This document shows, in pieces, positions 22,259 through 57,590 of a DNA stretch of 64,000 nt. How positions within the stretch are numbered: position 1 is the stretch's first letter; every line of letters begins with the position of its first letter. The translations under genes were made by a program, and so were the position numbers. The stretch is from an uncultured Planctomycetia bacterium (GTDB lineage: Bacteria; Omnitrophota; Gorgyraeia; VGKH01; JBHPFN01), in assembly GCA_964406665.1 (NCBI GenBank), contig CAYOSQ010000001.1, forward strand, positions 71,412 through 135,411, written 5' to 3'. The notes under the pieces were generated by a model. The model worked only from the letters and a program-made list of their open reading frames with translations, searched no databases and was not told the DNA's origin.

Positions 22259-25200
22259 ATGCGTAGCTGTAAAAACAGTCAGAGTATTTGTTTAAAAACA
22301 ATCATCGCAAGATGTATTCTTGCGATTCTTACATTGTCCTTTTTTTCTGCAAGCCTTCTTTTTCTCTCCAGCAGCCCAGCTTACTCTGAAGACCTTTCTG
22401 ATTTCCTCTGTGAATTAGCCACCAAATATTATGAGCGCGGAGATTATCCTAACGCGTTACACGAATTCAAAAAAGCTTTAATGATCAATCCCCATAATCG
22501 CACTGCGCAAAAATACATTGCAATTATCAGCGATCTAGAAGAAGTTGTTGTTGAGCCATCACCTTATCTGCCCATCGAAAGCATTCCTCAGGAATACAGA
22601 GACAAAGCTATTAAAAATGCACTGGATAGTTTTGATGAGGTTATTTTTGTAAAAGAGCCATATATCCAAGAAGAAACAGAATCTCAACCACCATTAATTA
22701 TTATTGATTCAGATGACGAACAAACTTTTCCTCAAGAAGAGCTGGATAAGTTTGATGAGGTCAGGGTCTCTAGAGAGCAGACTATTTTGGAAGATGTTCC
22801 TAAAGAACCCTCGATAGTAATATCTCCTGTGCAGGATAGGGAGATTATTGTTCGAAGTGCGCTCGATGAATTCGAAGCACGGTATGGGGCGGAAGATATT
22901 GTAGATATTGTGCCAGAGCCAGAAGAGATTGTTGAGGAAGAGCCCGAACACGAAGAAGCTATTTATTATCCTATCGAACCAGAGGAAGAATTTCCAGAGG
23001 AATTTGTTTCTACATCTTATGTTGAACCTTCCACAGACATAGAAAAGCCAAAGGGTTTTAAGCGTCTTTATCTTAATGTAGAAGTTAGGGCTTCGCAGCC
23101 ACAAACACAAATAAGTTTACAAATAGACAGAGATTTAATAATTATTGGAAGTAATATTGCTAGGTTTCTTGTGATTAATCCTGAAATTTTAGAGATTGTT
23201 AGATTGCGTCCCGACGAGATAAAGCTTGTGGCTAAGAAAATTGGAAGTACTTACGTGCATATCTGGGATGATGAAGGCCGGTGGACTTTTATCGTTCAAG
23301 TGTCACCGTTTCGCTCTGGCAGGCCGACACTTGCCGAGCTATATCGTCAGCAAGCCGAAGAGGCTGGTTCGTTAAAATTCCATTATTATAATGAATGGCG
23401 TTCGTTTTATTCTGGAAGAAGAGCGGATAACCTAACAAGGGATTCTCTTACTCTATATCAAAGCTTGGGTCTTGATATGCAGACTCCTTATGGAGATGTT
23501 GATGGCCGCGTTCAATTAAACAGGCTAAATGAAGAAAGCGAGCTCTCATTTTATACTTTAGGATTAACCGATGGCATGGTAGGTCCGTTTAAGAATTTTG
23601 ATCTACGTGCTTTAGATTATTATATAGATTTTGATAATATTTCTTTTGGTGGTGCGAGCTTGCGCGGTGTGAGGTTAGATGCAGAAGCATTTAATGAAAA
23701 AGTGGATTATACGGTTTTCTGGGGCAAAGAGAAAAGTGGGGCATTTGGTCCACTTGCTCCGGGGCTTGAGGGTTCAAACAAGTCATATCTTAAAGGTATA
23801 AATTTTGGATTCAACTCTCCGGAAAACCTTTATCAGACGCTTTCCTATTTCGCCGGATATGGTTCTGATAGGAGTTCTTTGTTGTTCCAAGATGCCTATG
23901 ATTATACGGGCGAGCTTAACTTAGGCGATACAAAATTATTTACCAACGTCGGACACGATGGCTATTCTCTGGCTTATATGCTAAGAGGTGTATATACCGT
24001 TCCTAAGCTTCAGTTAGCCGGCGAGTTTAGAAATATTGACGATGATTTTTATAGCATAACCGGCAGACCTTATGCATCAGGAGAAGTTGGTGGTTTGGTG
24101 AGCTATCGCTATGCCCCTTCCAGAGATCTAGATATCTCAGGACGCCTGAATGTTTATAGGGACACCTTGTTTCCTAACCCTCAACACAAAGAAAGATATA
24201 ATGCGGATTTCGATACTGCCATACGCTATACCATTAATCCTAGTACATCTATGAGGTTAGATTATTATAATGTTCATGATACCGGCACTATATCGCCGCA
24301 TAAAGATGAGTCTGTAGGATTATCCTTGTACAAAACAATTGATTTCATTAGGCCGCTTAGTACGTTTGTAAACTTAAGACATCAATCTAGTAAAAATCCT
24401 AGTTCGACAACTCTGGACTATAAAAATGAAAAAGCTGGCTTTGGCGTAAGAGTTGGCTTAACCGATACGCTTAATTATTATATCTCCAAGGAATTCAATT
24501 GGCTGGAGGATTATGCCGGAGATGTAGAAAAACCGCATGTTTTTGAGACGGGGCTTGATTATAATACCCAAATTCTCGACAGCCCGTTTTATATAACCTC
24601 TAGGCTTTATTTCCGGGATGAAGAAAATGCTGCTTCAACAAGAAGTTTCTTGGCTGGTGAAGATAATTTAGAAGGACAGGCTGAATTAAGGTATACCCCC
24701 AACGAAGATTTTAATTGCTACGCAAATCTACGAGTTAATAACTACTGGGCGGAAAACGCCGATACTACCAAGCGCACAGAAGCAGAGATTCGTTTCGGTA
24801 CACAATGGACTTTTGATACCGGCTTGAAATGGAATCCCATAGGTAGCATAACAGGCATTGTTTTTAAAGACTTGAATTCAGATGGCAAGCGTCAAGCGGA
24901 CGAGATTGTTATGAAGGATATTAAAATTTTCTTAGGAAGAGAAAAATTTGATATAACCGATGAAGAAGGAGCGTATATCTTTAAAAATATCCGTGCTCGC
25001 AAAGCCTTTGTTTACTTAGATACTAATACGCTACCAGCTGGATATGTGCCGACGGAAGAGAAATCCCAAGAGATAACAATTCAAAACGGCAAACTTATAA
25101 ATGTTGATTTTGGTGTTATAGCGCGTTCCGAAATATATGGTATTGTGTTTAAAGACTTAAATAGCAACGGAGAATTTGATGCTCAAGACGAAGGCGTGAG

Positions 25201-25420
25201 AGATGCTGTTCTATCTTTAGAAGATGGTTTAACAACCTCTACGAATGCAAGAGGTCAGTTTTATTTAAGAGAAGTTGCTCCTGGAAAACACACTCTTACC
25301 CTAGACATAAATAGCCTACCTATTAATCTTATTCCTTTGGTGCCGTTATTTAAAGAGATAGAGGTGTTTGAGGGAATTACCTATGTGCACAATATTCCTT
25401 TGAAAGAAACACAAGACTAA
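22259..25420 (+). CDS. large outer-membrane/cell-surface protein: N-terminal TPR, acidic linker, pilus-assembly (CpaC/secretin-N-like) domain, beta-rich Y/G/D/N region, and two C-terminal Cna-B/SdrD-B-like domains; putative usher-like component
   Basis: Motifs LQIDRDLIIIGSNIARFLVINPEILEIVRLRPDEIKLVAKKIGSTYVHIWDDEG; duplicated GIVFKDLNS(D/N)G...D modules at the C-terminus. Confidence 0.45.
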   Translation: MRSCKNSQSICLKTIIARCILAILTLSFFSASLLFLSSSPAYSEDLSDFLCELATKYYERGDYPNALHEFKKALMINPHNRTAQKYIAIISDLEEVVVEPSPYLPIESIPQEYRDKAIKNALDSFDEVIFVKEPYIQEETESQPPLIIIDSDDEQTFPQEELDKFDEVRVSREQTILEDVPKEPSIVISPVQDREIIVRSALDEFEARYGAEDIVDIVPEPEEIVEEEPEHEEAIYYPIEPEEEFPEEFVSTSYVEPSTDIEKPKGFKRLYLNVEVRASQPQTQISLQIDRDLIIIGSNIARFLVINPEILEIVRLRPDEIKLVAKKIGSTYVHIWDDEGRWTFIVQVSPFRSGRPTLAELYRQQAEEAGSLKFHYYNEWRSFYSGRRADNLTRDSLTLYQSLGLDMQTPYGDVDGRVQLNRLNEESELSFYTLGLTDGMVGPFKNFDLRALDYYIDFDNISFGGASLRGVRLDAEAFNEKVDYTVFWGKEKSGAFGPLAPGLEGSNKSYLKGINFGFNSPENLYQTLSYFAGYGSDRSSLLFQDAYDYTGELNLGDTKLFTNVGHDGYSLAYMLRGVYTVPKLQLAGEFRNIDDDFYSITGRPYASGEVGGLVSYRYAPSRDLDISGRLNVYRDTLFPNPQHKERYNADFDTAIRYTINPSTSMRLDYYNVHDTGTISPHKDESVGLSLYKTIDFIRPLSTFVNLRHQSSKNPSSTTLDYKNEKAGFGVRVGLTDTLNYYISKEFNWLEDYAGDVEKPHVFETGLDYNTQILDSPFYITSRLYFRDEENAASTRSFLAGEDNLEGQAELRYTPNEDFNCYANLRVNNYWAENADTTKRTEAEIRFGTQWTFDTGLKWNPIGSITGIVFKDLNSDGKRQADEIVMKDIKIFLGREKFDITDEEGAYIFKNIRARKAFVYLDTNTLPAGYVPTEEKSQEITIQNGKLINVDFGVIARSEIYGIVFKDLNSNGEFDAQDEGVRDAVLSLEDGLTTSTNARGQFYLREVAPGKHTLTLDINSLPINLIPLVPLFKEIEVFEGITYVHNIPLKETQD

Positions 25421-25471: not shown

Positions 25472-25726
25472 TTATCTTTCATAAAAGCTGTACAATTTAG
25501 CTTCTGTTAAGCGCTCTTCCTGAACACACAGCCTTTTTGTAGTATCTCGAATTTCAGCTTTAGCAGCTTCGATTTCACTTTGTTCTGTGTCCATCTCTAG
25601 CAATGCAGGGATTCTTGCAGAAACAGAAACTCGAGCAGTATTACCTGCCTCTACCGCGCTAGCCATCAAAGCGCAACCCAGCAAAATAATAACTAAAACG
25701 TTTGTAATAATCATTGTCTTTTTCAT
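25472..25726 (-). CDS. small secreted hypothetical protein (start at MKKTMII, preceded by GGAGGTG)
   Basis: Signal peptide followed by a charged helical region; the gene downstream of the tandem riboswitch candidates. Confidence 0.5.
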   Translation of the reverse strand: MKKTMIITNVLVIILLGCALMASAVEAGNTARVSVSARIPALLEMDTEQSEIEAAKAEIRDTTKRLCVQEERLTEAKLYSFYER

Positions 25727-25754
25727 CGGTACCACCTCCATAAATTTTCAAAAA

Positions 25755-25812: not shown

Positions 25813-25905
25813 CTACGGCAACCCGACAACCATAAAGACAGCCGATGTCTTTTTAGGCTCAAGGCTTTGTGCCCTACTCTTTCGAAGTAGTTTACTTTTA
25901 AGGAT
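25813..25905 (-). ncRNA. candidate c-di-GMP-I (GEMM) riboswitch aptamer, copy 2 (proximal to the CDS)
   Basis: Minus-strand RNA GUAAACUACUUCGAAAGAGUAGGGCACAAAGCCUUGAGCCUAAAAAGACAUCGGCUGUCUUUAUGGUUGUCGGGUUGCC matches the recalled GEMM-I consensus (GCAAACC, GAAA-capped P1, GGACGCAAAGCC, GGGUUACC-like 3' end). Confidence 0.55.
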
Positions 25906-25929
25906 TTGAAAGAACGTTGCTTCCAACAA

Positions 25930-25960
25930 AAAACCCTAGAATTTTTCTAGGGTTGCTACT
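25930..25960 (-). terminator. intrinsic terminator (expression platform of riboswitch 1)
   Basis: Minus strand ccctagaaaaattctaggg followed by TTTTTTGTTGG. Confidence 0.55.
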
Positions 25961-25961
25961 T

Positions 25962-26042
25962 TTGGCAACCCTGCCGCCTTCCCCCTTTCGGGAATAAGGC
26001 CGTTGGTTTTGCGTCCTTAGATTTCTCTAAGTTTGCCTTTTT
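25962..26042 (-). ncRNA. candidate c-di-GMP-I (GEMM) riboswitch aptamer, copy 1 (distal)
   Basis: Minus-strand RNA GCAAACUUAGAGAAAUCUAAGGACGCAAAACCAACGGCCUUAUUCCCGAAAGGGGGAAGGCGGCAGGGUUGCC; P1 CUUAGA-GAAA-UCUAAG with the GACGCAAAACC core. Confidence 0.5.
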
Positions 26043-26237
26043 CAAAAGCTAATATACTCTATAGAAACTATAGCACACAAAAAGCGCTTTTTCAAGTTGG
26101 CCAGGTAAATTTCTGAAAATTTTTAAACATCCTATTATGACATTTAAGCGTAACCGCTGAATTAGCTTTACTTTAGGTTTCTGCTATGATAGAATAGCAT
26201 TCACATTCAACAATATTTTTTAATCAAAAAACAAAAA

Positions 26238-43380: not shown

Positions 43381-43590
43381 TTGAATAAAAACAATTGGGT
43401 ACATTATTTTGGCTTAGTGATGCAGCTCGGATTGGTTATCTCCGCCTGTATTTTAGTAGGTTTGTTAATCGGTGTTTTTTTAGATAAGATATTTAAGACG
43501 AATGGAATTTTTTTAGTTGTATTTCTTATTTTTGGAATTGTTGCTGGATTTAAAAGCGCATATCAAGATATTATGAGATCAAGTAAATGA
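43381..43590 (+). CDS. AtpZ-like small membrane protein
   Basis: 2-TM, 69 aa, in operon position upstream of atpI. Confidence 0.4.
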   Translation: MNKNNWVHYFGLVMQLGLVISACILVGLLIGVFLDKIFKTNGIFLVVFLIFGIVAGFKSAYQDIMRSSK

Positions 43591-43967
43591 ATGTCCCAAT
43601 AGAATATATAGTATACAAAATAAATATTTTAAAGAAGTCTTTGGTGCTTTTGGGCTTACTGGTAATATCCGGAACTTTTTTAAATAAAGGCTTTACGCTT
43701 GGGGTATTTATGGGTGGATGTATTTCTCTGGCACAGTTTTCCCTGCTTTCTAAGCACATACTGCAGATGAAAGAGTTGGCGGTTAAAAGCGCACAGAGAT
43801 ATATTATAATTAGATTTCTTCTTATGTATGCAATAATGGGCTTTGCACTTTTTATCGGCATTCAAAAGAACCTCGCAACATTCTTTGGAGTTGCCGCGGG
43901 GTTATTAATTGTTCAGGCAACTATTTATCTGGATAATTTTGTAGCAACTTTTAAAAAAAATAAATAA
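43587..43967 (+). CDS. atpI: ATP synthase protein I-like membrane protein
   Basis: 4-TM small protein preceding the Fo genes. Confidence 0.4.
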   Translation: MNVPIEYIVYKINILKKSLVLLGLLVISGTFLNKGFTLGVFMGGCISLAQFSLLSKHILQMKELAVKSAQRYIIIRFLLMYAIMGFALFIGIQKNLATFFGVAAGLLIVQATIYLDNFVATFKKNK

Positions 43968-43969
43968 TT

Positions 43970-44209
43970 ATGTCGTCAGAAATAATCAAAATTGTATCTT
44001 TGGCAGCAAGCGGAATATGCATGGGCTTAGGCGCCGTAGGGCCGAGTATGGGCATAGGGATTATTGGCTCTAAAGGCCTTCAAGGGATTAGTGAAAATCC
44101 TAAGCAAGAAGGAGTGCTTTTGAAAACCATGCTTATTGCTATGTCTATTGCCAGCACCACGGCTATTTATGCATTAATTATCTGTATGCTGCTAATTTTT
44201 GTAATTTAG
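43970..44209 (+). CDS. ATP synthase c-subunit paralog lacking the ion-binding carboxylate (Ser at the Glu position)
   Basis: Aligns with the downstream atpE (GAVGPSMGIGIIGSKG...), but helix 2 reads IAMSIASTTAIYALI versus [15 protein letters not shown]. Confidence 0.5.
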   Translation: MSSEIIKIVSLAASGICMGLGAVGPSMGIGIIGSKGLQGISENPKQEGVLLKTMLIAMSIASTTAIYALIICMLLIFVI

Positions 44210-44221
44210 AAAGTTTATTCT

Positions 44222-44953
44222 ATGCAAGATATCGGCGCTATAAGCACGCATGCTTTTACAATACCGCAGTTAGGTATTCAGCTTACTGTAAACCCAGTGA
44301 CTTTGATAACCAGCTGGGCTATTATGGGTTTTCTTGGCGTCGTATTATGCCCGGTTGCTTTTCGTCTGCGCAGGTTTCCTGGTAAGCTTCAAGCGGGGTG
44401 TGAATTATTCTACACAGCTTTTTCTGATATGGCTTACGAGGCTATGGGTAAGGATGCAAAAAAGTTTATTCCTTTAGTTGTAACTATATTTTTATTTGTA
44501 CTTGTTGCTAATTGGGCAAGTGTTATTCCGGGAGTTCACAGTCCTACAAAGGACCTAAACACTTGTTTAGGTTTAGGAATTTTAGTATTTATAGTTGCCC
44601 ATGTTTCCGCTATAATGAAAAAAGGATTAAAAGCATATATTACAGATTATTTTAAGCCCTATCCATTTTTTCTACCGATTAATTTAATTGGAGAAGTAGG
44701 AAAGGTTTTGTCGCACTCGTTTCGTTTATTCGGTAATCTTTTCGGCGGGGCGATAATCTTATCTTTAATTGGTCCGGTAACCCTAGAGATTTTCAAGGCG
44801 CTTAATTTTCCTGTGTTTACAAGCGCTCCGTTTTTGCTGATTTTATATTTTATTCAAACAGCATTTTTTGGAATTTTTGTAGGTTTGGTTCAGGCATTAG
44901 TGTTCAGCTTGCTGGCGTTGACATATATAGCGATTTTAAGAGAAGAACAATAG
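44222..44953 (+). CDS. atpB: ATP synthase Fo subunit a
   Basis: LSHSFRLFGNLFGG conserved Arg helix. Confidence 0.9.
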   Translation: MQDIGAISTHAFTIPQLGIQLTVNPVTLITSWAIMGFLGVVLCPVAFRLRRFPGKLQAGCELFYTAFSDMAYEAMGKDAKKFIPLVVTIFLFVLVANWASVIPGVHSPTKDLNTCLGLGILVFIVAHVSAIMKKGLKAYITDYFKPYPFFLPINLIGEVGKVLSHSFRLFGNLFGGAIILSLIGPVTLEIFKALNFPVFTSAPFLLILYFIQTAFFGIFVGLVQALVFSLLALTYIAILREEQ

Positions 44954-44956
44954 TAG

Positions 44957-45292
<336 letters not shown>

Positions 45293-45317
45293 AGTTTTAT
45301 ACAATTGAGAGGGCAAG

Positions 45318-45800
45318 ATGAATCTTAATTTTACATTAATAATTCAGATAATAAGCTTCGCTATATTTTTAGGACTTTTGACTAAATTTTTTTATAGGCC
45401 TTTGATGAATTATTTAGAAGATAGATCTGCCCAGATTAAGAAAATGGTAGAAGAAACCGAAGGAAACAGAAATATTGTTAACGAGGAAATCAAAAAGGTC
45501 CAGGAGGAGCTTAAAAAAACAAAAGAACAGGTCATCAAAATGAAAAAATCTGCTTCGCATGAAGCAGATAAGCATAGAAGAGCAGCTCTTGAGCAGGCTA
45601 AAAAAGAAGCTGCCGAGTTGCTTGATAGAGCAAAAAGCGAGATTAAAAAAGAATTAGCAGATGCTAAAGAGAAGCTCAAGGTAGAGGTCGCATCTCTTTC
45701 TATAGATGTTGCTATGAAGATTCTAGATAGAGAAGTAAAAGAAAAAGACCATAAAAAACTTATTAGTGAAGCGATAGAAGAATTAGGTAATGCAGGATAA
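45318..45800 (+). CDS. atpF: ATP synthase Fo subunit b
   Basis: Single N-terminal TM followed by a long charged coiled coil. Confidence 0.75.
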   Translation: MNLNFTLIIQIISFAIFLGLLTKFFYRPLMNYLEDRSAQIKKMVEETEGNRNIVNEEIKKVQEELKKTKEQVIKMKKSASHEADKHRRAALEQAKKEAAELLDRAKSEIKKELADAKEKLKVEVASLSIDVAMKILDREVKEKDHKKLISEAIEELGNAG

Positions 45801-46332
45801 CGTAGAAATATTACATGATAGATACGCCCGAGCTCTTTATGAGCATGCTAAAGATACCGGTGAGGTTGATAAGGTAATGCGTCAATTACAGGCGTTAAAT
45901 GATTTATGGTTATCAAATAGTAATTTCAGAGTCTGCTTAAGGCATCCCTTGATTGCCCGCTGGGAGAAAAAACAAGTTATGAAGCAGTTGGCAAAAATTA
46001 AAGATTGCTGTGAGACGCTGCTTAATTTTGTTAATATTCTGATCGAGAATAAAAGAGGCGGTTTAATTCACGGAGTATTTCTTAAATTCAAAGATCTTTA
46101 TGAACTTTATGAAAATAGAGCCAGTGTCGTTTTAGAAAGCGCGAGAGAGTTGTCCAACGAAGAAAAACAAAGAATGAAACAAGCCTTAAGTGAGGCGTTG
46201 AAAAAGAACGTTTCCCTAAAAACCCGCGTTAATAAAGATTTAATTTCAGGAGTAAGGATCCGTCATGGGGATACTGTATTTTCTAACAGTTTGATTTCAA
46301 AATTAAATAGATTAAGAGAGGGAATAGTATGA
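45790..46332 (+). CDS. atpH: ATP synthase delta (OSCP) subunit
   Basis: Position and size; [11 protein letters not shown] resembles the OSCP N-terminus. Confidence 0.75.
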
Positions 46333-47840
46333 AAATTAAGCCCAGCGAAATAACGTCCATTATTAAACAACAGATAGAAAATTATGAAAATAGGATAGAA
46401 ACAGCTGAAACTGGAACTGTGCTTAAAGTTGGAGACGGAATAGCAGAAATTTATGGCCTGGATCAGGCTATGTCTGGTGAGCTGTTGGCATTTCCTCAGA
46501 ATATATATGGCATGGTTTTAAATTTAGAAGAAGCTACAGTGGGAGCATGTATTTTTGGTGATGATTCACTTTTAAAGGAAGGCGATGAAGTTAGACTCAC
46601 CGGTAAAATCGTTGAGATAGGCGTAGGAGAAGAATTAATTGGTAGAGTGGTTAATGCCTTAGGCCAGCCCGTAGATGGTAAGGGAGACATTAAAGCTAGA
46701 CAAACTAGCCCTGTTGAGAAGATAGCTCCTAATGTTGTAAGTAGGCAGCCGGTTAAAGAACCTCTGTATACAGGAATAAGGGCAATTGATGCTATGATTC
46801 CTATAGGTAGGGGTCAGAGAGAATTAATCATCGGTGATAGGCAAACAGGTAAAACCGCTATCGCAATTGATACAATCTTAAATGCTAAAGGAAAAGACCT
46901 TATATGTATTTATGTGGCAATTGGACAGAAGAATTCAACAGTTGCCTCAATACAGGATACATTAACGAAACATGGTGCGATGGATTATACAGTTATTGTC
47001 AACGCAGCTGCTGGAGAAGTTGCCCCCATGAGATATTTAGCTCCATATGCCGGATGTACAATAGGAGAGTTTTTCCGTGATAACGGTAAGCACGCGCTGA
47101 TTGTTTATGATGACCTTACTAAACACGCCCAATCCTACAGAGAACTTTCTTTGTTGCTGAGAAGGCCTCCGGGACGCGAAGCGTATCCGGGAGATATTTT
47201 TTATTGTCATTCAAAACTACTAGAGAGAGCTTGTAAATTCAGCGAAGAAAACGGCGGAGGGTCGCTAACGGCGCTGCCGATCATAGAGACACAGGCAGGT
47301 GACGTAACAACGTATATACCAACCAATGTTATTTCTATTACAGACGGACAAATTTATCTGGAAACTAGTCTATTTTATCAAGGTGTGCGCCCGGCAATTA
47401 ATGTAGGCTTAAGCGTTTCTAGAGTTGGTGGTAATGCTCAAGAGAAATCTATGAAACAGGTAGCTGGAAGGCTTAGGTTGGATTTGGCACAGTTTCGAGA
47501 GATGGAATCATTTGCTCAATTTGGAACCGAGCTCGACAATGCTACTATTCAACAGCTGGAAAGAGGCAAGCGGCTAGTAGAGATCTTAAAACAGCCACAG
47601 TATAAACCTATGCCTCAAGAAGAGCAGGTAATAATTATTTTTGCCGGTGTGCGCGGTTTAATTGACGAGATCGACATTAATGATATGGAGCGCTTTCAGA
47701 AAGAGCTATTTGTGTTTTTAAAAGAAAAGCACGGTACCTTGCTTGAACAGCTAAGTCATGAGAAGGTTGTGTCCGATTCCCTGGAGCAGGAATTGACTTT
47801 AGTAATTGAGGAATTCAAAAAACAGTTTGTGAGATTATAA
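46329..47840 (+). CDS. atpA: ATP synthase F1 alpha subunit
   Basis: Walker [16 protein letters not shown]. Confidence 0.95.
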
Positions 47841-47842
47841 TT

Positions 47843-48700
47843 ATGGCAACCTTGCGCAGCATAAAAAATAGAATTGGTAGCGTTGAAAAAATTAGGAAAA
47901 TTGCTAAAGCTATGGAGATAGTAGCGCTTACTCGTCTGCGCAAGATTGAACAAAAGACTCAGGAGGCCAGGGATTATTTCGACAGGCTGCGTGATTTAAT
48001 GTTCGGCGTTGCTGATAATTTACTTTATGAGGCACATCCTTTCTTAAGAGAGCGAAGCTCAATAAAAAAATCAGCTGTAATTTTAGTTGCTTCAGATAAA
48101 GGTTTATGCGGAAATTTTAACGCCACTATTCTTAGTTCTTTTGATAGGTTTGTATCAGAAAACCCTGGTTTAAATATTGCCGGAATAGCCGTGGGAAAAA
48201 AATCAGAAACCATTTTTAAAAAACGCAAAATTGAAATAACAGTTGCCAGCGCCCCAGCTTCTCTAAAGGCGCATGATTATCTTGATACAGCTTCACAGCT
48301 TGCAGAAAAGATAGCTAAATTGTATTTAGACAGAGAAGTTGATCAACTGGTAATAATTTACAATAAATTTAAAATGCAATTTTTAGGCTCAGCTGAAATC
48401 CTTAAATTACTGCCTTTGAAGCTAGAGGGGTTTAAGATTAAAAGAATAAGAGATTATATTTATGAGCCCGATGCTTATGCAGTATTAGATCAGTTGTTAA
48501 AAGAATATCTTACTAATCAAATCGGGCAGGTGATTTTAGAATCTAACGCTGCTGAAGAAATGGCGCGTATGCTGGCGATGAAACAGGCGCGAGATAATGC
48601 CAACGAGGTAATAGATAAATTAAATTTAAGTTATCATAAAGCACGTCAGTCCAGCATTACAAGAGAGCTGGTAGAGATTACCACAACATTAAACGCATAG
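47843..48700 (+). CDS. atpG: ATP synthase F1 gamma subunit
   Basis: MATLRSIKNRIGSVEKIRKIAKAMEIVALTRL. Confidence 0.9.
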   Translation: MATLRSIKNRIGSVEKIRKIAKAMEIVALTRLRKIEQKTQEARDYFDRLRDLMFGVADNLLYEAHPFLRERSSIKKSAVILVASDKGLCGNFNATILSSFDRFVSENPGLNIAGIAVGKKSETIFKKRKIEITVASAPASLKAHDYLDTASQLAEKIAKLYLDREVDQLVIIYNKFKMQFLGSAEILKLLPLKLEGFKIKRIRDYIYEPDAYAVLDQLLKEYLTNQIGQVILESNAAEEMARMLAMKQARDNANEVIDKLNLSYHKARQSSITRELVEITTTLNA

Positions 48701-48712
48701 ATCATTTATTAA

Positions 48713-50140
<1,428 letters not shown>

Positions 50141-50149
50141 AGAAATCTT

Positions 50150-50238
50150 TTTGTTGACAAAAAAAGCCTCTGTTATTATTATAGTATGAATATTAAAGGG
50201 CGATTAGCTCAGTTGGTTAGAGCATCTGACTTACATTC
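50150..50238 (+). pseudogene. duplicated tRNA-Val(TAC) promoter plus 5' half (acceptor, D arm and anticodon stem-loop up to ...ttacattc), truncated; direct repeat of 54890..54978
   Basis: 50198..50238 is identical to the first 41 nt of the intact tRNA-Val at 54938; the upstream TTGACA-17-TATTAT promoter is about 80% identical to the one upstream of the intact gene. Confidence 0.55.
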
Positions 50239-50312
50239 CAATCTGAGTTTTTTTCATAAGCTGTTGTAATTGCTGTAAATACGGTCTTCGTAAATCACTT
50301 ACGGAGATTTTT

Positions 50313-50377
50313 TGTTTTAATAGAGTTTAATAGTTTTTAATGGTTTTTAATGCTGTATGGACACCTATATGGACACC
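50313..50377 (+). repeat. four tandem ~10-bp units (g/t)ttttaat(a/g)g, followed by two direct repeats tatggacacc (50356..50365 and 50368..50377), in the leader of the giant gene
   Basis: Visible in the sequence: gttttaatag agtttaatag tttttaatgg tttttaatgc, then tgTATGGACACCtaTATGGACACC. Confidence 0.45.
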
Positions 50378-50514
50378 AAGTAGGCAGGGGGTGGGCTTAA
50401 GGGGATATCCACATAGTTAGACCGAAGGTCGTCAAGAAACCGCTTTCTTGAAACACTACATTTACTCTTTTCTTTGTAGAATTAGATGTTATTCTTTTAG
50501 TAATAGACAGATAA

Positions 50515-50650
50515 AGGTAAACCATCAGAGATGGTGGGACGCAAAGCCACGGGTCTAGGAAGGGTCAGCCTAGATTAATATAAAGTCTTTTTGAAGAATA
50601 TCTTAGGCAATTATCCTTTATTTAGATAGCCGGGTTACCAAAAGGTGGTT
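50515..50650 (+). ncRNA. candidate c-di-GMP-I (GEMM) riboswitch aptamer, copy 3
   Basis: GGUAAACCAUCAGAGAUGGUGGGACGCAAAGCCACGGGUCUAGG...AGCCGGGUUACC; an 11-bp GU-containing stem gccggguuacc-aaaa-ggugguucggc followed by a U-rich tract, then the AAGGAGAG SD and ATG at 50683. Confidence 0.45.
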
Positions 50651-50682
50651 CGGCTTTCTATTTAAACATAAGGAGAGTTAAA

Positions 50683-53600
50683 ATGAAAAAGAAAAAAATC
50701 CTAGGAATAATTATTTGTTTAATAGTGATAGCAAGCCTCTGTTTTTTAGGTAATGCTGTGGCATTTCAAGGTCAAGATGCTAATACAAAATTAAATCAAC
50801 AGGCTAATAAGCTTTTGACGCCAGATGTGAAAAAGATCAATGAACTTGCGTCTGATGTCCGGGCAAATATCGAAAGACTCACTCAGAAAAGAAGTGACAT
50901 AGAAATTTCGAGTTGGAATTTGTCTACGGAGACACCACATAGAATAATTTCTAAAAACATTAGATTAGGCAAAAATATTCAAATCAACAAAGATAATATA
51001 GAGTCACTTACGAAAAATTTCATTTTGAGTCAACGAGATTTGCTGAAAGCGGATATAACTAATCTGAAGTTAATAAGGGCGCATAACATCAACAATAAAT
51101 GGTATGTAACATATCAGCAATATCTAAATAATATCCCAGTATATTATGGACTTGTTGAAATTAGAATGAGTGGAAAAGGAGAAATTTCGCTTTTTGGTTC
51201 AGATTACCATTCTGAAATAGAAATTTCCACCAAACCTTCGATTCTTGATGAAAAAGTTATACGCATAGCTCAAAAGGATATTGAGTTCAATGAAAGCACA
51301 GATTCAATATTTTCTTATCCAGGACTTATAGTTCTACCTGTTCAAGATGGCGGATCTATAAAATATCAGCTTGCCTACAGACTCGTACTTTCTACCAAAA
51401 ACCCTATTGGAAGCTGGGTTTTCTTTATTGATGCGCACAATGGAACGATACTTGCCAAGTATAACAATATCAAATTTTACCAAATTGATGGCAGTGTTAA
51501 TGGAGAAATATTACCGCAATATTATGATGATGAATTGGTGCAGAAAAATTTTATTCATGAAAGGGTTGAAGTTCAAGATATTGGATATGATTATACTGAT
51601 TTGGATGGATATTTCAGCATTACTGGAGATGCAGATGAAGGAGAGCAATTTACTTTAATTTCAGAATTAAAAGGCCCATATGTAGATGTGGATTATGAAG
51701 ATGGTGATGATGCAATTTATCTCGAAGAAATTGAAGCTCAGGGAACGTATGATTGGACATGGGATGCTTCTTTAGGGAGGCAGGACGAACTCAATGTTTA
51801 TTATCACGTCAATCGAATCCATGATTATGTAAAGAATAATCTTGGGTTTTCTGGCATGGATTATCAAATGAAGGCAATGGTTTCTGTTTTTGAATATTGG
51901 GATAATGCATTTTACAACCCAGATGATGAAAGCATTAACTTTGGAGCAGGTGGTGTAGCTTATAGAAATTTTGCTCTTTTTTCTGACGTTATTTATCATG
52001 AGTATGCCCATGGCGTTACTGATCATATTTATCCGGAAGGTTCGCTGCCTTATTTTGGACAATCAGGAGCAATGAACGAGGGTTTTTCAGATTACTTTGC
52101 GTGTACAATTAGTAATGAGCCTTATTTAGGAGAGGGGGGGCTCAGTAAATTTGGCTTGCCATACATGCGTACAGTTGATAATTCGGCTCGATACCCAGAT
52201 GATTATATCAACCGAGTACATCATGACAGCATGATTTTTTCTGGTTCTTTGTGGGATTTGAGAGAAATGTTAATAGATAAATACGGTGAGAATTATGGCA
52301 TAAAAAAAACCGATACTTTATCACATCTTGCTCGCTTTGGATATCCTGAAAATTTTGAGGATTATCTCCTTGAACTTTTATTTGTTGATGATGATAATGG
52401 CAATATTTATGACGGCACACCTAACTCTGTCGAAATATATACGGCTTTTTCTAGACATGGAATAGGTCCTGAGCCCACTGCGGTAGGTATTCAATATTTT
52501 GGTTCATTTATTGATGATGCAAATGGCAATAATAACGGATTGCTTGATCCGGGTGAAACTGTAGAGCTTGAAGTCACCCTTTTAAATAATCTTATAGAAA
52601 GTCTAGGCGGTTATGCAATTCATAATGTTACAGCTAGGCTAGTTAGCGTCGATCCATATATTACCGTTTCGAATAAGAAAATTTTGGTTGGAGATCTTAA
52701 ACCTCAGGAAACGGGTGTTGCAAGATTTAAGATTACGCTGGAAGATGCACCTGTTGATTGGAACGATTATCAAATTGACTTTTCTTTAGAAATAACCGGT
52801 TCCCCTGTTACTACAAATAATTTTTCTATAGATGCTACGGATTTTTGGCAAAGCAATTTTCGGATTCCAGTTGCATTTTTGGATTTGACTCATAGAAAAT
52901 CCTGGTATTATGATGAAGAGCTAGGAAATAATGATCGTTTTGCAAATCCGGGGGAAACAGGAGAGATATTAATTGCTGTTAAAAACACCGGTCTTCTTGT
53001 TGCCACGGGAGTAGTTGTAAAAGTTGCTTCAAACAGTCCATATGTATTTGTTCTAGAGGATGAGGCTTATATTGAGGATATCGATCCAGGAGATAGTGGA
53101 TATGCTTCTGTGATGGTTCAATTTTCTGATACAGTTCCCGTAGGCATAGAAGTTGACTTTAAAGCTGAAATTAGCGCTGACGAAGGTTTTTTAATGTATT
53201 TTCCAATAGAGATATTTGTTCCCAGGATAATATTTGATGATCATGCTTCATCAAGCGGAGTTGTTGGGGATTCTACTTATTATCTTCAGCAAGCTGTGTT
53301 TGGTGATTATGATAATGATAATGATCTGGATATCTATATGGCTATGCATGAAGATTGGACAGTTCCAGCCCTGGATTTGCTCTATCGAAACAACGCAGAT
53401 GGCACGTATACAGAGTTAGGAGAAGAAGCAGGAGTGAATTCATTGTTGTCTTCAACGCGCGCTACGTTTTTTGACTATAATAATGATAACTGGCTAGATT
53501 TATTTATTTTGCACGATGAGGATAATACTCTGTTTCGCAATAATGCAGATGGAACTTTTACTGATGTAACTATGGAAGCAGACATAGATACTAACGGACA

Positions 53601-54732
53601 GGGTAACACAAACAATACCGCAGGTATATTAATCGGAGATTTTGATAACGATGGTTGGCTTGATGTATTTACCGGCGGAGCATTCTATCGAAATAATGCT
53701 GACGGTAGCTTTACTGATATCATTGAGCACTCAGGTATCATAGGGGGATCCGGCTATAAATATGTATCAATAGCCCTTGATTTCGATAACGATAATGACT
53801 TAGATATTCTCTGGTCAAGCCGTGACGAAGATGTTCTCTATCGCAATGACGGCAACTTTACGTTTTTTGATATTTCTATAGAAGCAGGTATATTAGAGCG
53901 TGAACAATTAATTATTAGCGATATAGCAATAGGTGACTATAACAATGATGGTTGGCTTGATGTATATATTGTTTCACGCGGAGGATATTCATGGTATAAC
54001 CCAACCCCAAACATGCTTTATCGTAATAATGGCGATAGTACATTTTCGGAGGTAGGGGCATATGCCGGAGTAAATGATAGTTTAGCATTAGGAGGCGACG
54101 CAATTTTTGCCGACTATAATAACGACGGATACTTAGATATTTTTGTAGCAAATGAAGGTAGGCAAAGCGAAGATTGTTATGGTGGTTGCTCTAGGTCGTT
54201 TCAGGCAGACTCTCTTTTTATAAATAACGGTAATGATACATTTTCTGATATCGTTTCTGGAACTATGGCAACTGCACCAGAAGTTGGAAGCACGCTTAAT
54301 TGGAGGATTAGCTCCGCAGATAGCAATGATGATGGGTTCTTGGATATATACTATGCCCATACTGATTTCGATAGTCCAGATATTAATCAACTACTTATTA
54401 ATGATTATTTTACTGATACACAAAATAATTGGCTTAAGGTTAAGCTTGAAGGAACAACAAGTAACAAAGATGGTATCGGAGCTAAAGTAAAAGTTGTTTG
54501 TGATGGTCAAGAACAATTAAGAGAAGTATCTAATCATCAGGGGCAGAGTTTAGAAGTAGAGTTTGGACTAAAAGGATATTCATCGATAGATTTGTTAGAA
54601 ATAACCTGGCCAAGTGGACAAATGCAAAGCTTGCAAGATATAGCTGCGAATCAGACTATTGCTGTTATTGAAGAGGATAGGCCACCAAGGCCACATCCGG
54701 GCAAGAAGTCCATTTTACCCTTTTTGTTTTAG
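50683..54732 (+). CDS. giant (1349 aa) secreted multidomain protein: M36 (fungalysin)-like zinc metalloprotease, FG-GAP/VCBS-type beta-propeller repeats, and a C-terminal ASPIC/UnbV domain
   Basis: Signal peptide; HEYAHGV (HExxH) with downstream NEGFSDYF Glu ligand; repeated DYDNDNDLDIY / DFDNDGWLDVF / DYNNDGYLDIF motifs; C-terminal NKDGIGAKVKV...LEITWPSGQMQSL. Confidence 0.7.
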   Translation: MKKKKILGIIICLIVIASLCFLGNAVAFQGQDANTKLNQQANKLLTPDVKKINELASDVRANIERLTQKRSDIEISSWNLSTETPHRIISKNIRLGKNIQINKDNIESLTKNFILSQRDLLKADITNLKLIRAHNINNKWYVTYQQYLNNIPVYYGLVEIRMSGKGEISLFGSDYHSEIEISTKPSILDEKVIRIAQKDIEFNESTDSIFSYPGLIVLPVQDGGSIKYQLAYRLVLSTKNPIGSWVFFIDAHNGTILAKYNNIKFYQIDGSVNGEILPQYYDDELVQKNFIHERVEVQDIGYDYTDLDGYFSITGDADEGEQFTLISELKGPYVDVDYEDGDDAIYLEEIEAQGTYDWTWDASLGRQDELNVYYHVNRIHDYVKNNLGFSGMDYQMKAMVSVFEYWDNAFYNPDDESINFGAGGVAYRNFALFSDVIYHEYAHGVTDHIYPEGSLPYFGQSGAMNEGFSDYFACTISNEPYLGEGGLSKFGLPYMRTVDNSARYPDDYINRVHHDSMIFSGSLWDLREMLIDKYGENYGIKKTDTLSHLARFGYPENFEDYLLELLFVDDDNGNIYDGTPNSVEIYTAFSRHGIGPEPTAVGIQYFGSFIDDANGNNNGLLDPGETVELEVTLLNNLIESLGGYAIHNVTARLVSVDPYITVSNKKILVGDLKPQETGVARFKITLEDAPVDWNDYQIDFSLEITGSPVTTNNFSIDATDFWQSNFRIPVAFLDLTHRKSWYYDEELGNNDRFANPGETGEILIAVKNTGLLVATGVVVKVASNSPYVFVLEDEAYIEDIDPGDSGYASVMVQFSDTVPVGIEVDFKAEISADEGFLMYFPIEIFVPRIIFDDHASSSGVVGDSTYYLQQAVFGDYDNDNDLDIYMAMHEDWTVPALDLLYRNNADGTYTELGEEAGVNSLLSSTRATFFDYNNDNWLDLFILHDEDNTLFRNNADGTFTDVTMEADIDTNGQGNTNNTAGILIGDFDNDGWLDVFTGGAFYRNNADGSFTDIIEHSGIIGGSGYKYVSIALDFDNDNDLDILWSSRDEDVLYRNDGNFTFFDISIEAGILEREQLIISDIAIGDYNNDGWLDVYIVSRGGYSWYNPTPNMLYRNNGDSTFSEVGAYAGVNDSLALGGDAIFADYNNDGYLDIFVANEGRQSEDCYGGCSRSFQADSLFINNGNDTFSDIVSGTMATAPEVGSTLNWRISSADSNDDGFLDIYYAHTDFDSPDINQLLINDYFTDTQNNWLKVKLEGTTSNKDGIGAKVKVVCDGQEQLREVSNHQGQSLEVEFGLKGYSSIDLLEITWPSGQMQSLQDIAANQTIAVIEEDRPPRPHPGKKSILPFLF

Positions 54733-54775
54733 CTTGTCGATCTGAAGACCGCGAGTTTAAATCTTATAGTGCCTG
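54731..54775 (+). pseudogene. tRNA-Asp 3'-half fragment (anticodon-loop to T-arm, acceptor degenerate) abutting the stop codon of the giant gene
   Basis: ttgtcgatctgaagaccgcgagtttaaatcttatagtgcc versus the intact attgtcgatctgaagatcgcgagttcaaatctcgtcgggccc at 55153..55194. Confidence 0.4.
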
Positions 54776-54937
54776 TCACCTCCACATTTTTTGAAATCTG
54801 ACTATGCCGCTTATTTCCACCGCTATTGTTTTACCAACAAGCGCTTCCGCAGAATAACTTAACTCGTTATCATTGTCTCCGAATAATTTTCTATTGACAG
54901 TTAAGGATTATATCATTATCATAGTATAAATATTAAA

Positions 54938-55011
54938 GGGCGATTAGCTCAGTTGGTTAGAGCATCTGACTTACATTCAGAGGGTCGAGGGTTCGAGTCC
55001 TTCATCGCCCA
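54938..55011 (+). tRNA. tRNA-Val (anticodon TAC)
   Basis: gggcgattagctcagttggttagagcatctgactTACattcagagggtcgagggttcgagtccttcatcgccca. Confidence 0.85.
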
Positions 55012-55120
55012 TTAAGATTTTGCGAAGCAAAACTAGTCCTGAGCTTTTGTTGGATTAATTGTTTGAAGCGAGGGACCAGGATAAAAAATCTGTTCTTTGT
55101 AACATAGGGTAATTTTCTAA

Positions 55121-55195
55121 GGGCCCGTGGTGTAGCTTGGTTAACATGTCAGATTGTCGATCTGAAGATCGCGAGTTCAAATCTCGTCGGGCCCG
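55121..55195 (+). tRNA. tRNA-Asp (anticodon GTC)
   Basis: gggcccgtggtgtagcttggttaacatgtcagattGTCgatctga...gagttcaaatctcgtcgggcccg. Confidence 0.85.
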
Positions 55196-55260
55196 TTAAG
55201 TTTGCCGAAGGAAAATAACACCGAGCTTATTAAAAATAAGCGAGGAGACATTAAACCAAA

Positions 55261-55295
55261 CCCCCGTATTGACTTACGGGGGTTTTTTATTTTTT
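55261..55295 (+). terminator. rho-independent terminator after the tRNA-Val/Asp pair
   Basis: cccccgta-ttgactta-cggggg hairpin followed by TTTTTTATTTTTT. Confidence 0.55.
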
Positions 55296-56288: not shown

Positions 56289-57590
56289 ATGGAGATTAAA
56301 TTATATTTAATAGTTCTGTTTTTCGGAACACTGTTAGGTTTAAATCTTGCCCGTTTATTAATTGTGAAAATTTCAAGGACAGAAGTAGTTGAAGATGAGA
56401 AAAAGGCTCGAAGCAGAGAATCTATGATACGAAAGGTTCTAAGTAGAGTTCCGGAAGTAGGTGCAGATAAACAAAAAGTTAAAACTGATTCATCTGTTTT
56501 GGAGAAGAAAATTCTCTATGAAGATGAGCTTAACCGGATTCTTCAGATTGAGCAGGAGATTTCCGCTAATGCTCAATTAGCAGATGTTTCTCGTGTCATA
56601 GTCGAGAATGCCATGAAGACATTTGGTGTTGATAGATGTGTTTTACTGTTGCTTGATCCGGAAACCAAAATACTTAAAATACAATATTCTATTGGTTTAA
56701 TCGATGAAGATATTAATAGTACGAGTCTTAAGTTAGGAGAAGGATTATCTGGTTATGTTGCCGAGAGAAATCAGATGATGGCTATAGAAGATGTTAAAAA
56801 AGAATTCTGGTCTAAGGGAGAAAAAGAGTATTATTACACCGGCCCCCTAGTCAGCATTCCCCTAACGACACAAAACATGGTTTTCGGAGTATTGAATATC
56901 GATCGTAAGAAAACAGGAGAGGTTTTTAACGACGACGATATCCGTTTTATCAAGAGTTTAGCTGTGCAGAGTGCGATTGCCATACAAAATGCCAGATTGT
57001 ACGAAGAGGTTCAAGAGGGCTATCTCAGGACAATAATGGCTTTGGCAGAAGCCTTGGATGCAAAAGACCCGTATACTCATAAACACTCAGAGAACGTTAC
57101 CAGGTTTGCCGTGGCAATTGCAGAGGAGCAGGGATTATCTTTATCAGAGATTGAAAAAATTAGAAGAAGTGGTCTTATGCACGATATTGGAAAAATCGGT
57201 ATTAAAGACGATATCCTTACAAAGCCTGGTAAATTGACCGATGAAGAATTTGAGCAGATAAAAACTCATCCTGAGAAAGGTGAAAGCATCCTGCGGTCTT
57301 TGCCTTTTCTGGAGGAAATCTCAAAAATAGTACGCCATCATCACGAACGTTATAATGGTGCAGGATATCCGGATAAGTTAAAAGGTTATCAAATAGAATC
57401 AGGTGCTAAGATATTGGCGGTTGCGGATGCGTTTGATGCCATGGTATCTGATAGACCATATCGAAAAGCATTGAGTTTAGAAATAGCACGCGGAGAATTA
57501 GAGCGCAACAGCGGAACACAGTTTGATCCGGCGGCAGTTGAGGCATTTCTTAAGGTCCTTCAGAAAAATCCAAACATTATTAAAAGTTAG
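56289..57590 (+). CDS. membrane-anchored GAF + HD-GYP domain c-di-GMP phosphodiesterase
   Basis: N-terminal TM; GAF-like middle; HDIGKIGI and HHERYNGAGYP motifs. Confidence 0.75.
   Translation: MEIKLYLIVLFFGTLLGLNLARLLIVKISRTEVVEDEKKARSRESMIRKVLSRVPEVGADKQKVKTDSSVLEKKILYEDELNRILQIEQEISANAQLADVSRVIVENAMKTFGVDRCVLLLLDPETKILKIQYSIGLIDEDINSTSLKLGEGLSGYVAERNQMMAIEDVKKEFWSKGEKEYYYTGPLVSIPLTTQNMVFGVLNIDRKKTGEVFNDDDIRFIKSLAVQSAIAIQNARLYEEVQEGYLRTIMALAEALDAKDPYTHKHSENVTRFAVAIAEEQGLSLSEIEKIRRSGLMHDIGKIGIKDDILTKPGKLTDEEFEQIKTHPEKGESILRSLPFLEEISKIVRHHHERYNGAGYPDKLKGYQIESGAKILAVADAFDAMVSDRPYRKALSLEIARGELERNSGTQFDPAAVEAFLKVLQKNPNIIKS

Follow-up and report, generated by a model that had tools for sequence, protein, structure and literature searches.

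The closest regulatory precedent for the locus described here is ZmpI/PPEP-1 of C. difficile, a secreted zinc metalloprotease under a class I riboswitch for cyclic diguanylate (c-di-GMP) that acts as an OFF switch (PMC6366702). For the protein itself the nearest described relatives are the M4 proenzymes of the thermolysin type and, in its C-terminal half, the CRTAC1 family. The window analysed here, the whole of a 64,000-nucleotide stretch of contig CAYOSQ010000001.1 in whose coordinates positions are given, contains at 50683-54732 (+) an open reading frame (ORF) of 1349 amino acids (aa) from ATG plus stop. It is predicted to encode a large zinc protease that is exported and carries a calcium-type CRTAC1-like propeller, and the gene lies behind a c-di-GMP riboswitch. 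Two very large families, the M4/M36-like proteases and CRTAC1/UnbV_ASPIC, are joined here, and the fusion appears to be under the control of a well-understood signal, c-di-GMP. The components all have known counterparts; all that is unusual is that they occur together and that the cassette is inserted between two tRNA halves.

The limits of the gene in the ORF list were confirmed exactly. A second, independent metagenome assembly (L001) carries both leader and gene, with two single-nucleotide polymorphisms across 47683-55011 (7.3 kb) and one substitution within the gene, which rules out an assembly artefact as the source of the ORF. From N to C terminus the protein comprises a signal peptide, an FTP/PepSY-like propeptide, a beta-sandwich, a thermolysin-fold domain, two repeats of ~125 aa, a propeller and an UnbV_ASPIC domain. 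The original prediction, made from the letters and their translations, was of a secreted multidomain protein in which a protease is fused to an FG-GAP propeller and, at the C terminus, to an UnbV_ASPIC domain. It is borne out by Pfam and by CRTAC1 sequence and fold matches, with the protease a gluzincin; overlooked at that stage were the FTP/PepSY-type propeptide, the beta-sandwich (aa 266-360) and the tandem repeats (aa 601-860). The first 27 residues form a predicted Sec-type signal peptide, where the AlphaFold2 (AF2) model has a helix (aa 2-22) and then, at aa 24-32, a disordered stretch of low confidence.

The catalytic motif HEYAH lies at aa 439-443 and is followed by NEGFSDYF, in which E466 stands 23 residues after H443, the arrangement already read from the translation. 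H439, E440, H443, E466 and H513 are invariant in the 59 relatives of our family alignment (A1), with Y450 and D470 conserved in at least 90% of them, and these residues correspond to the gluzincin zinc ligands, catalytic base and transition-state residues of the thermolysin type. Pfam places the HExxH region in known peptidase families: Peptidase_M4 (PF01447) matches aa 359-447 at 38.1 bits (gathering score 22.4) and Peptidase_M36 (PF02128) aa 427-542 at 32.9 bits (gathering score 23.3), the latter over profile positions 173-305 of 368 only. Peptidase_M4_C (PF02868) is borderline at 24.8 bits (gathering score 24.4), with only 24 residues matched (aa 455-478), and FTP (15.6, threshold 21) and PepSY (18.3, threshold 24) are both sub-threshold from the single sequence. 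The 59-sequence profile matches the thermolysin proenzyme 5a3y at 3.5e-36 across propeptide and catalytic domain, other M4 enzymes at 1e-20 to 1e-10, and the M36 fungalysin 4k90 at ~1e-5; its positions 53-247 align with the thermolysin propeptide (E 4e-18) and its zinc and catalytic residues with the HELTH...NEAISD motif of thermolysin.

The AF2 model of aa 1-604 has a predicted local distance difference test (pLDDT) score of 91.3 and gives a thermolysin fold. When it is searched with Foldseek, M4 structures fill the top 24 ranks (E 4e-13 to 2e-10, target template modelling (TM) score 0.62-0.72), with fungalysin at rank 25 (target TM 0.53), and the propeptide matches those of MCP-02 (3nqz_A, 9e-07) and of fungalysin (4k90_B, 2e-06). 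The counterpart of the beta-sandwich region in the homologue P0075 matches CarboxypepD_reg. Because of the Pfam scores, the PDB profile search and the fold ranking we place the protease nearer to M4 than to M36; the label 'M36-like' given by the original prediction stands in so far as the M36 match is over its gathering score, but M4 is the nearer by both profile and fold. NCBIfam contains no model that fits the protein: with NF038113, its model for type IX secretion system (T9SS)-dependent M36 metallopeptidases, the score is 32 bits and the cut-off 885. The protease therefore belongs to a distinct, large and uncharacterised M4/M36-like family of uncultured bacteria, of which the GTDB species representatives contain 536 relatives or more. 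These span Zixibacteria, Eisenbacteria, Calditrichota, Omnitrophota, Gemmatimonadota and DPANN/Altiarchaeota, and their C-termini are usually of the T9SS, FlgD_ig or MAM type; the best-matching locus in the GTDB contig search is 38% identical. We know of no experimentally defined function for M4/M36-like proteases of uncultured bacteria. That the protein would be an active exported metalloprotease is well supported by the conserved motifs and domain matches.

Behind the catalytic domain the two tandem repeats align with each other at 27% identity (E 1e-9). Across aa 601-860 they match no Pfam family, and the sole PDB sequence match is a designed protein, with no significant stretch; we presume them to be beta-sandwich spacers. 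The propeller that follows matches Pfam FG-GAP_3 (PF13517) in six stretches (E 3.1e-36) and carries seven calcium-type motifs (D/NxD/NxD/N-G/D/N-xxD) at aa 875, 931, 986, 1033, 1085, 1144 and 1213, in agreement with the earlier count of at least seven, with a look-alike at aa 614 outside the propeller; by these motifs it is predicted to bind calcium. The C-terminal UnbV_ASPIC domain, also foreseen, is detected as PF07593 at aa 1264-1326 (E 3.8e-13, 49.6 bits, gathering score 23.4). The crystal structure of murine CRTAC1 (9etn) is matched by phmmer at 1.3e-10 over aa 928-1330 and, with AF2 pLDDT mostly >90 over the module, by Foldseek at 1.6e-25 (9etn_A, target TM 0.71), followed at about 1e-8 by the ligand-binding propellers of integrin alpha and by the N-acetylglucosamine (GlcNAc)-binding PVL lectins. 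The two domains named separately at the outset are indeed there, but propeller and ASPIC form one CRTAC1-family module (aa ~861-1335) and not separate additions. The conserved columns of the C-module family alignment are the Asp, Asn and Gly of the calcium motifs and structural residues. The bacterial CRTAC1-like family has at least 7841 proteins at E <1e-5; with aa 150-1349 as query there are 41,610 representatives at E <=1e-3, the best 150 of which are dominated by giant multi-propeller proteins, and the closest bacterial homologue of the C-module is ~35-41% identical.

The frequency of such fusions was surveyed among 510 collected proteins; an exhaustive search gives the best 150 of 41,610 matches and hence no total count. 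Within this collection a protease of the same family is joined to a full CRTAC1-like module only in P0002 (M4/M36-like protease, FG-GAP, ASPIC and dockerin) and P0510 (FTP, catalytic domain, FG-GAP, ASPIC and FlgD_ig), in keeping with the expectation that protease-ASPIC fusions are uncommon; P0066 and P0075 have protease and propeller without ASPIC. In P0166 it is a cysteine protease, Peptidase_C25, that is followed by the two middle repeats, which are thus common to both proteins, and by FG-GAP, ASPIC and a T9SS tail, the alignment covering 97% of aa 597-1349. A single fusion event shared with P0002, the closest relative of the N-module, was considered and rejected, its C-module being among the most distant (239 of 246 when ranked against that of the window protein). 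Since the C-module of P0510 likewise ranks 201 of 246, the fusions look independent in origin as well as rare and recurrent. Repeated fusion with unrelated proteases suggests an accessory or targeting role in which the CRTAC1-like module would aid secreted proteases; that the propeller binds and targets is argued, tentatively, from this recurrence and by analogy.

Directly upstream of the gene lies a c-di-GMP-I (GEMM-I) aptamer, its 3' end 40 nt before the start codon, in line with the c-di-GMP control that had been proposed and that the leader predicts. The P2 stem is capped by a GAGA tetraloop, P3 is enlarged by an insertion of ~50 nt, and the core elements AAAGGUAAACC, GGGACGCAAAGCC and, at the 3' side, GGGUUACC agree with the RF01051 consensus. 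In carrying GACGCAAAG the aptamer follows RF01051; the GGC variant model RF03167 has GACGCGAAG there and scores 57.3, just under its gathering score of 59. The nucleotides that we take to contact the ligand are those presumed from the Vc2 structures. When the aptamer is folded alone the minimum-energy structure gives P2 and P3 (z -2.3).

The aptamer overlaps an intrinsic terminator, for which the terminator scan gives 12 pairs and whose hairpin, at -19.4 kcal/mol, is more stable than any of 200 shuffled sequences (z -5.0). According to the Rfam alignment the 5' arm of this terminator is the 3' strand of aptamer P3 together with the junction ACC, and because the strand is shared aptamer and terminator are mutually exclusive. 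The minimum-energy fold of the full leader contains the terminator and not P3 (-47.3 vs -40.1 kcal/mol, a gap of 7.2 kcal/mol), and before the 3' arm of the terminator is made the aptamer fold is the minimum-energy structure. In these predicted folds the partner of the heptamer AUCCUUU, which lies in the P3 insertion, is the ribosome-binding site (RBS) when the terminator forms and a segment within P3 when the aptamer forms. From the exclusion of aptamer and terminator an ON switch is predicted, and we regard it as moderately supported by the folding that c-di-GMP probably turns the gene on.

Further upstream, the weak terminator-like hairpin downstream of the pseudo-tRNA described below would shield the leader of the riboswitch from the duplicated tRNA promoter; a canonical promoter for the riboswitch was not identified. 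Between 50310 and 50420, ahead of the aptamer, there are four phased TTTAAT(A/G)G repeats as well as a tandem ATGGACACC-N3-ATGGACACC repeat, which could be protein-binding or curved-DNA elements.

Rfam finds two further c-di-GMP-I aptamers within the window, arranged in tandem at 25814-26047 (-) with 78.2 and 62.9 bits and a terminator behind each. They precede a small ORF (25741..25472 (-), 84-89 aa) with a signal peptide and no family match. Because of a separate antiterminator-like segment (GCAACCCU) the first of these units looks like an OFF switch, the opposite logic to that of the protease leader in the same genome. Convergent with the small ORF is a gene (22259-25420 (+), 1053 aa) for a protein with TPR, T2SS-T3SS_pil_N (secretin/pilus N-terminal) and SdrD_B/CarboxypepD_reg-like domains, which may belong to a surface or pilus-related apparatus. 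A likely c-di-GMP phosphodiesterase of 433 aa is encoded 1.5 kb downstream of the protease, at 56289-57590 (+); it has a membrane segment at its N terminus, a GAF domain and an HD-GYP domain with the HDIGK and GYP motifs present. Its position is kept in relatives and it is therefore outside the cassette. Together with the two further aptamers it speaks for c-di-GMP signalling in this genome. The Omnitrophota literature searched (including bioRxiv 10.1101/2023.11.21.568195) yielded no mention of c-di-GMP. When all fetched loci were screened with a regular expression, the only plausible aptamer was a c-di-GMP-I-core-like match (GCAAAC...GGGCGCAAAGC) at L023:7150-7180 (+), ~2.6 kb downstream of a protease homologue at the edge of the fetched locus, in a metagenome-assembled genome of Planctomycetota.

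The window is an origin-proximal region of the chromosome, with dnaA and dnaN present and the GC skew changing sign near 10 kb. An F-type ATP synthase operon (43587-50140) ends with the beta subunit, and its AtpD shares 84, 78 and 75% identity with proteins assigned to Candidatus Omnitrophota or Omnitrophica, which makes Omnitrophota the probable phylum of the host. No epsilon gene follows atpD here, and relatives have an epsilon-like ATP-synt_DE_N gene upstream of atpI (L085:912-1154, L087:868-1113). After the operon comes a 4.5-kb insert that holds the leader and the protease gene only and is bounded on both sides by partial tRNA copies. On the left, 50148-50238 repeats 54888-54978 directly over 91 nt (86% identity in total, 100% within the tRNA part); it has a promoter copy with 11/12 consensus matches and retains the first ~39 nt of tRNA-Val, and ARAGORN calls no tRNA in it. 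On the right, 54731-54776 is a direct repeat with 55151-55196 (83% identical) and is 91% identical to the tRNA-Asp of relatives. Both break points fall within anticodon loops.

Three relatives with 83-84% identical AtpD and shared gene order (L085, L086 and L087) lack the protease/riboswitch cassette. The order in L087 is atpD, tRNA-Val, a small cargo gene, tRNA-Asp, a tRNA-binding protein, GAF-HD-GYP and YjbQ; in L085 and L086 it begins in the same way and then turns to a restriction-modification island after tRNA-Asp, an island that also has helicase genes (L085:9917-15407). The cargo in the Val-Asp spacer (L085:9162-9524, L086:2552-2914, L087:9116-9373) is a 23S_rRNA_IVP protein in two relatives and a GIY-YIG protein in the third, and the Val-Asp tRNA site thus collects variable cargo. 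Since L085 has a partial copy of tRNA-Val (L085:8872-8929), and a 61-nt indel in the spacer between tRNA-Val and tRNA-Asp (55012-55120) distinguishes the window and L001 assemblies, which are near-identical up to the end of tRNA-Val, we take the locus for a recombination hot spot, at which the riboswitch-protease cassette is a lineage-specific arrival. An integrative mobile element was considered and rejected, as the 4.5-kb insert showed neither an integrase or transposase nor inverted repeats.

The reading that we favour, and that we hold to be reasonably likely as a whole, is that of a c-di-GMP-gated, exported thermolysin-like zymogen tethered by a Ca2+-loaded CRTAC1-like propeller. At low c-di-GMP the 3' strand of P3 would pair with downstream sequence to form the intrinsic terminator and transcription would halt in the leader, the heptamer of the P3 insertion pairing with the RBS; at high c-di-GMP the ligand would lock the aptamer and hold the terminator arm in P3, with read-through and a free RBS as the result. 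Sec would export the protein, the FTP/PepSY propeptide would serve as folding helper and inhibitor until removed as in M4 enzymes, and the mature enzyme would consist of the catalytic domain, the two spacer repeats, the propeller and ASPIC. The Ca2+-loaded propeller would tether this enzyme to a surface, matrix or partner-cell ligand, and the tethering would localise proteolysis during the attached, high-c-di-GMP state. Predatory or host-attached lifestyles have been proposed in Omnitrophota (bioRxiv 10.1101/2023.11.21.568195), and a bolder and doubtful form of the proposal is a c-di-GMP-induced 'adhesive protease', whose propeller would bind a ligand in a matrix or on the surface of a partner or prey cell and keep the thermolysin-like protease there.

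A number of observations weigh against the tethered, c-di-GMP-induced protease, and several of them concern the direction of the switch, which is predicted from in silico thermodynamic folding of a single sequence. The terminator stem contains four G-U pairs and its U tract is interrupted; Rfam finds no riboswitch upstream of the protease gene at the P0002 and P0066 loci, and the screen of all fetched loci, including 80 from GTDB, found no aptamer upstream of the protease. The protease precedent, ZmpI, is under negative control, and no other protease with a class I c-di-GMP riboswitch has been characterised (PMC6366702); the tandem leader at 26047-25814 (-) has an OFF-like design with a separate antiterminator. 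Were the protease leader an OFF switch too, c-di-GMP would repress the enzyme and motile or unattached cells would make it, for instance for adhesin release or matrix dispersal. We nevertheless consider this unlikely, since the 5' arm of the terminator is the P3 strand plus the ACC junction that would contact the ligand, making bound aptamer and terminator incompatible, and since between aptamer and terminator there is no separate antiterminator, which an OFF design would need.

Other points against the favoured reading concern the protein. No outer-membrane secretion signal is recognisable, the tail beyond ASPIC having only 14 aa in which Pfam recognises no sorting domain (no Por_Secre_tail match), and the protein could remain periplasmic in a diderm; its relatives have T9SS, dockerin or FlgD_ig C-termini. 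AF2 is unreliable over the middle repeats (pLDDT <50). To our knowledge bacterial CRTAC1/UnbV_ASPIC modules have no experimentally defined function, and tethering is argued by analogy. The module might instead be catalytic itself, acting on a glycan or other polymer and making the protein a bifunctional degradative enzyme and not a tethered protease. Its weaker Foldseek matches do include propeller enzymes (aldos-2-ulose dehydratase 4a7k and sialidases), and JGI labels UnbV homologues 'enediyne biosynthesis protein E4', but the best fold matches by far, to CRTAC1 and then to integrins and lectins, are non-enzymatic and the conserved columns contain no obvious catalytic set, which leaves a second enzymatic activity highly improbable. 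The absence of the sorting domains of relatives, together with the flanking tRNA-Val 5' half, the decayed tRNA-Asp fragment overlapping the stop codon, and the lack of the cassette in relatives with the same gene order, would also fit a decaying recombination remnant with little or no expression that has lost its original C-terminal sorting domain. We think this very unlikely as well, for the ORF is uninterrupted over 4047 nt with a good RBS, all catalytic and calcium-motif residues are intact, the riboswitch score is far over threshold, ASPIC is complete up to its usual end, and the second assembly has the same gene with a single substitution.

Table 1. Features of the riboswitch-protease cassette and its surroundings, in window coordinates.
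Feature	Position	Strand	Basis or remarks
Left boundary: duplicated tRNA-Val promoter (TTGACA-17-TATTAT) and tRNA-Val 5' half	50148..50238	+	pseudo-tRNA
Weak terminator-like hairpin, then TTTTTGTTTT	50283..50309	+	11 pairs, 3 G-C; consensus match only
c-di-GMP-I (GEMM-I) aptamer	50506-50642	+	Rfam RF01051, 62.8 bits (gathering score 35), E 6.4e-10
Possible anti-Shine-Dalgarno AUCCUUU in P3 insertion	50613..50619	+	minimum-energy folds, prediction only
Intrinsic terminator	50628-50665	+	stem AGCCGGGUUACC/GGUGGUUCGGCU, loop AAAA, tail UUCUAUUUAA; hairpin 50628-50655
Ribosome-binding site AAGGAGAG	50670-50677	+	last base 5 nt upstream of ATG
Coding sequence	50683..54732	+	1349 aa; identical protein found in public collections
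Predicted Sec-type signal peptide, aa 1-27	50683..50763	+	MKKKK, hydrophobic core, AVA/F cleavage site; judged by eye
FTP/PepSY-type propeptide, aa ~70-262	50890..51468	+	A1 profile, Foldseek, sub-threshold Pfam
All-beta sandwich between propeptide and catalytic core, aa ~266-360	51478..51762	+	AF2 strands, pLDDT >90
Thermolysin-fold zinc metallopeptidase domain, aa ~361-600	51763..52482	+	H439, E440, H443, E466, D470, H513
Two tandem ~125-aa repeats, aa ~601-860	52483..53262	+	each with N/DPGET-x-E motif
FG-GAP/VCBS beta-propeller, aa ~861-1240	53263..54402	+	seven DxDxDG calcium-type motifs
UnbV_ASPIC domain, aa ~1241-1335	54403..54687	+	followed by 14-aa tail
Right boundary: decayed tRNA-Asp 3' part, from anticodon loop on	54731..54776	+	overlaps stop codon
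Intact tRNA-Val(tac) 54938-55011 and tRNA-Asp(gtc) 55121-55195	54938..55195	+	ARAGORN, Rfam; pair conserved in relatives
Strong terminator after tRNA-Asp	55258-55285		terminator scan

If the tethered protease is real, bacterial CRTAC1/UnbV_ASPIC would be a general targeting device for secreted proteases (M4/M36-like and C25), and a very large, functionally unassigned family would gain its first role. If the ON logic holds, the leader would contrast with that of ZmpI (OFF), the only characterised riboswitch-controlled metalloprotease, and c-di-GMP riboswitch signalling would be shown in a probable member of the Omnitrophota; if it fails, the protein would merely be another multidomain secreted protease.

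Among uncharacterised proteins the nearest in layout are P0002, P0510 and P0166, in which, as here, a protease is followed by a CRTAC1-like module, P0166 also having both middle repeats. They differ from the window protein in their dockerin, FlgD_ig or T9SS tails, and at the examined loci of these fusions no riboswitch was found (Rfam for P0002, regular expression for the fetched loci). Like vertebrate cartilage acidic protein 1 (CRTAC1) and bacterial UnbV, the C-terminal module has a DxDxDG propeller directly followed by UnbV_ASPIC, but it is without an EGF-like domain and makes up the C-terminal half of a protease instead of being a secreted protein in its own right. With the M36 fungalysin of Aspergillus fumigatus (Mep, 4k90) the protease half shares a Pfam match to part of the M36 profile, an EGxSD-like motif and the propeptide fold (4k90_B), and NCBI labels several relatives 'M36 family metallopeptidase'; the likeness is weaker than that to M4 on every measure (PDB profile, Foldseek and NCBIfam).

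As in the M4 proenzymes (thermolysin, vibriolysin MCP-02, aureolysin, LasB and Legionella ProA), the propeptide appears to be of the FTP/PepSY type, HExxH is followed by an NExxSD motif whose Glu is the third zinc ligand, a conserved His is equivalent to the transition-state His, and the thermolysin fold is matched with a target TM of about 0.7 over the whole mature enzyme. Unlike in those enzymes, a beta-sandwich precedes the core and a 750-aa extension follows it, identity over the structural alignments is only 15-21%, and the match to the helical M4_C domain is limited to 24 residues. The zinc-binding Glu, which in thermolysin we take to lie 20 residues after the second His, lies 23 residues after it here.

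ZmpI presumably belongs to a different peptidase family (M34). It is small, single-domain and repressed, whereas the window protein has 1349 aa in several domains and a platform whose geometry predicts activation. What has precedent are the components and the principle of a riboswitch-controlled secreted metalloprotease; what sets this locus apart is how they are combined, its insertion flanked by tRNA halves, its predicted ON logic and its probable host in the Omnitrophota. Like the leader of ZmpI, the c-di-GMP-I leader described here would tie cell-surface proteolysis to the decision between motile and sessile life (PMC6366702).

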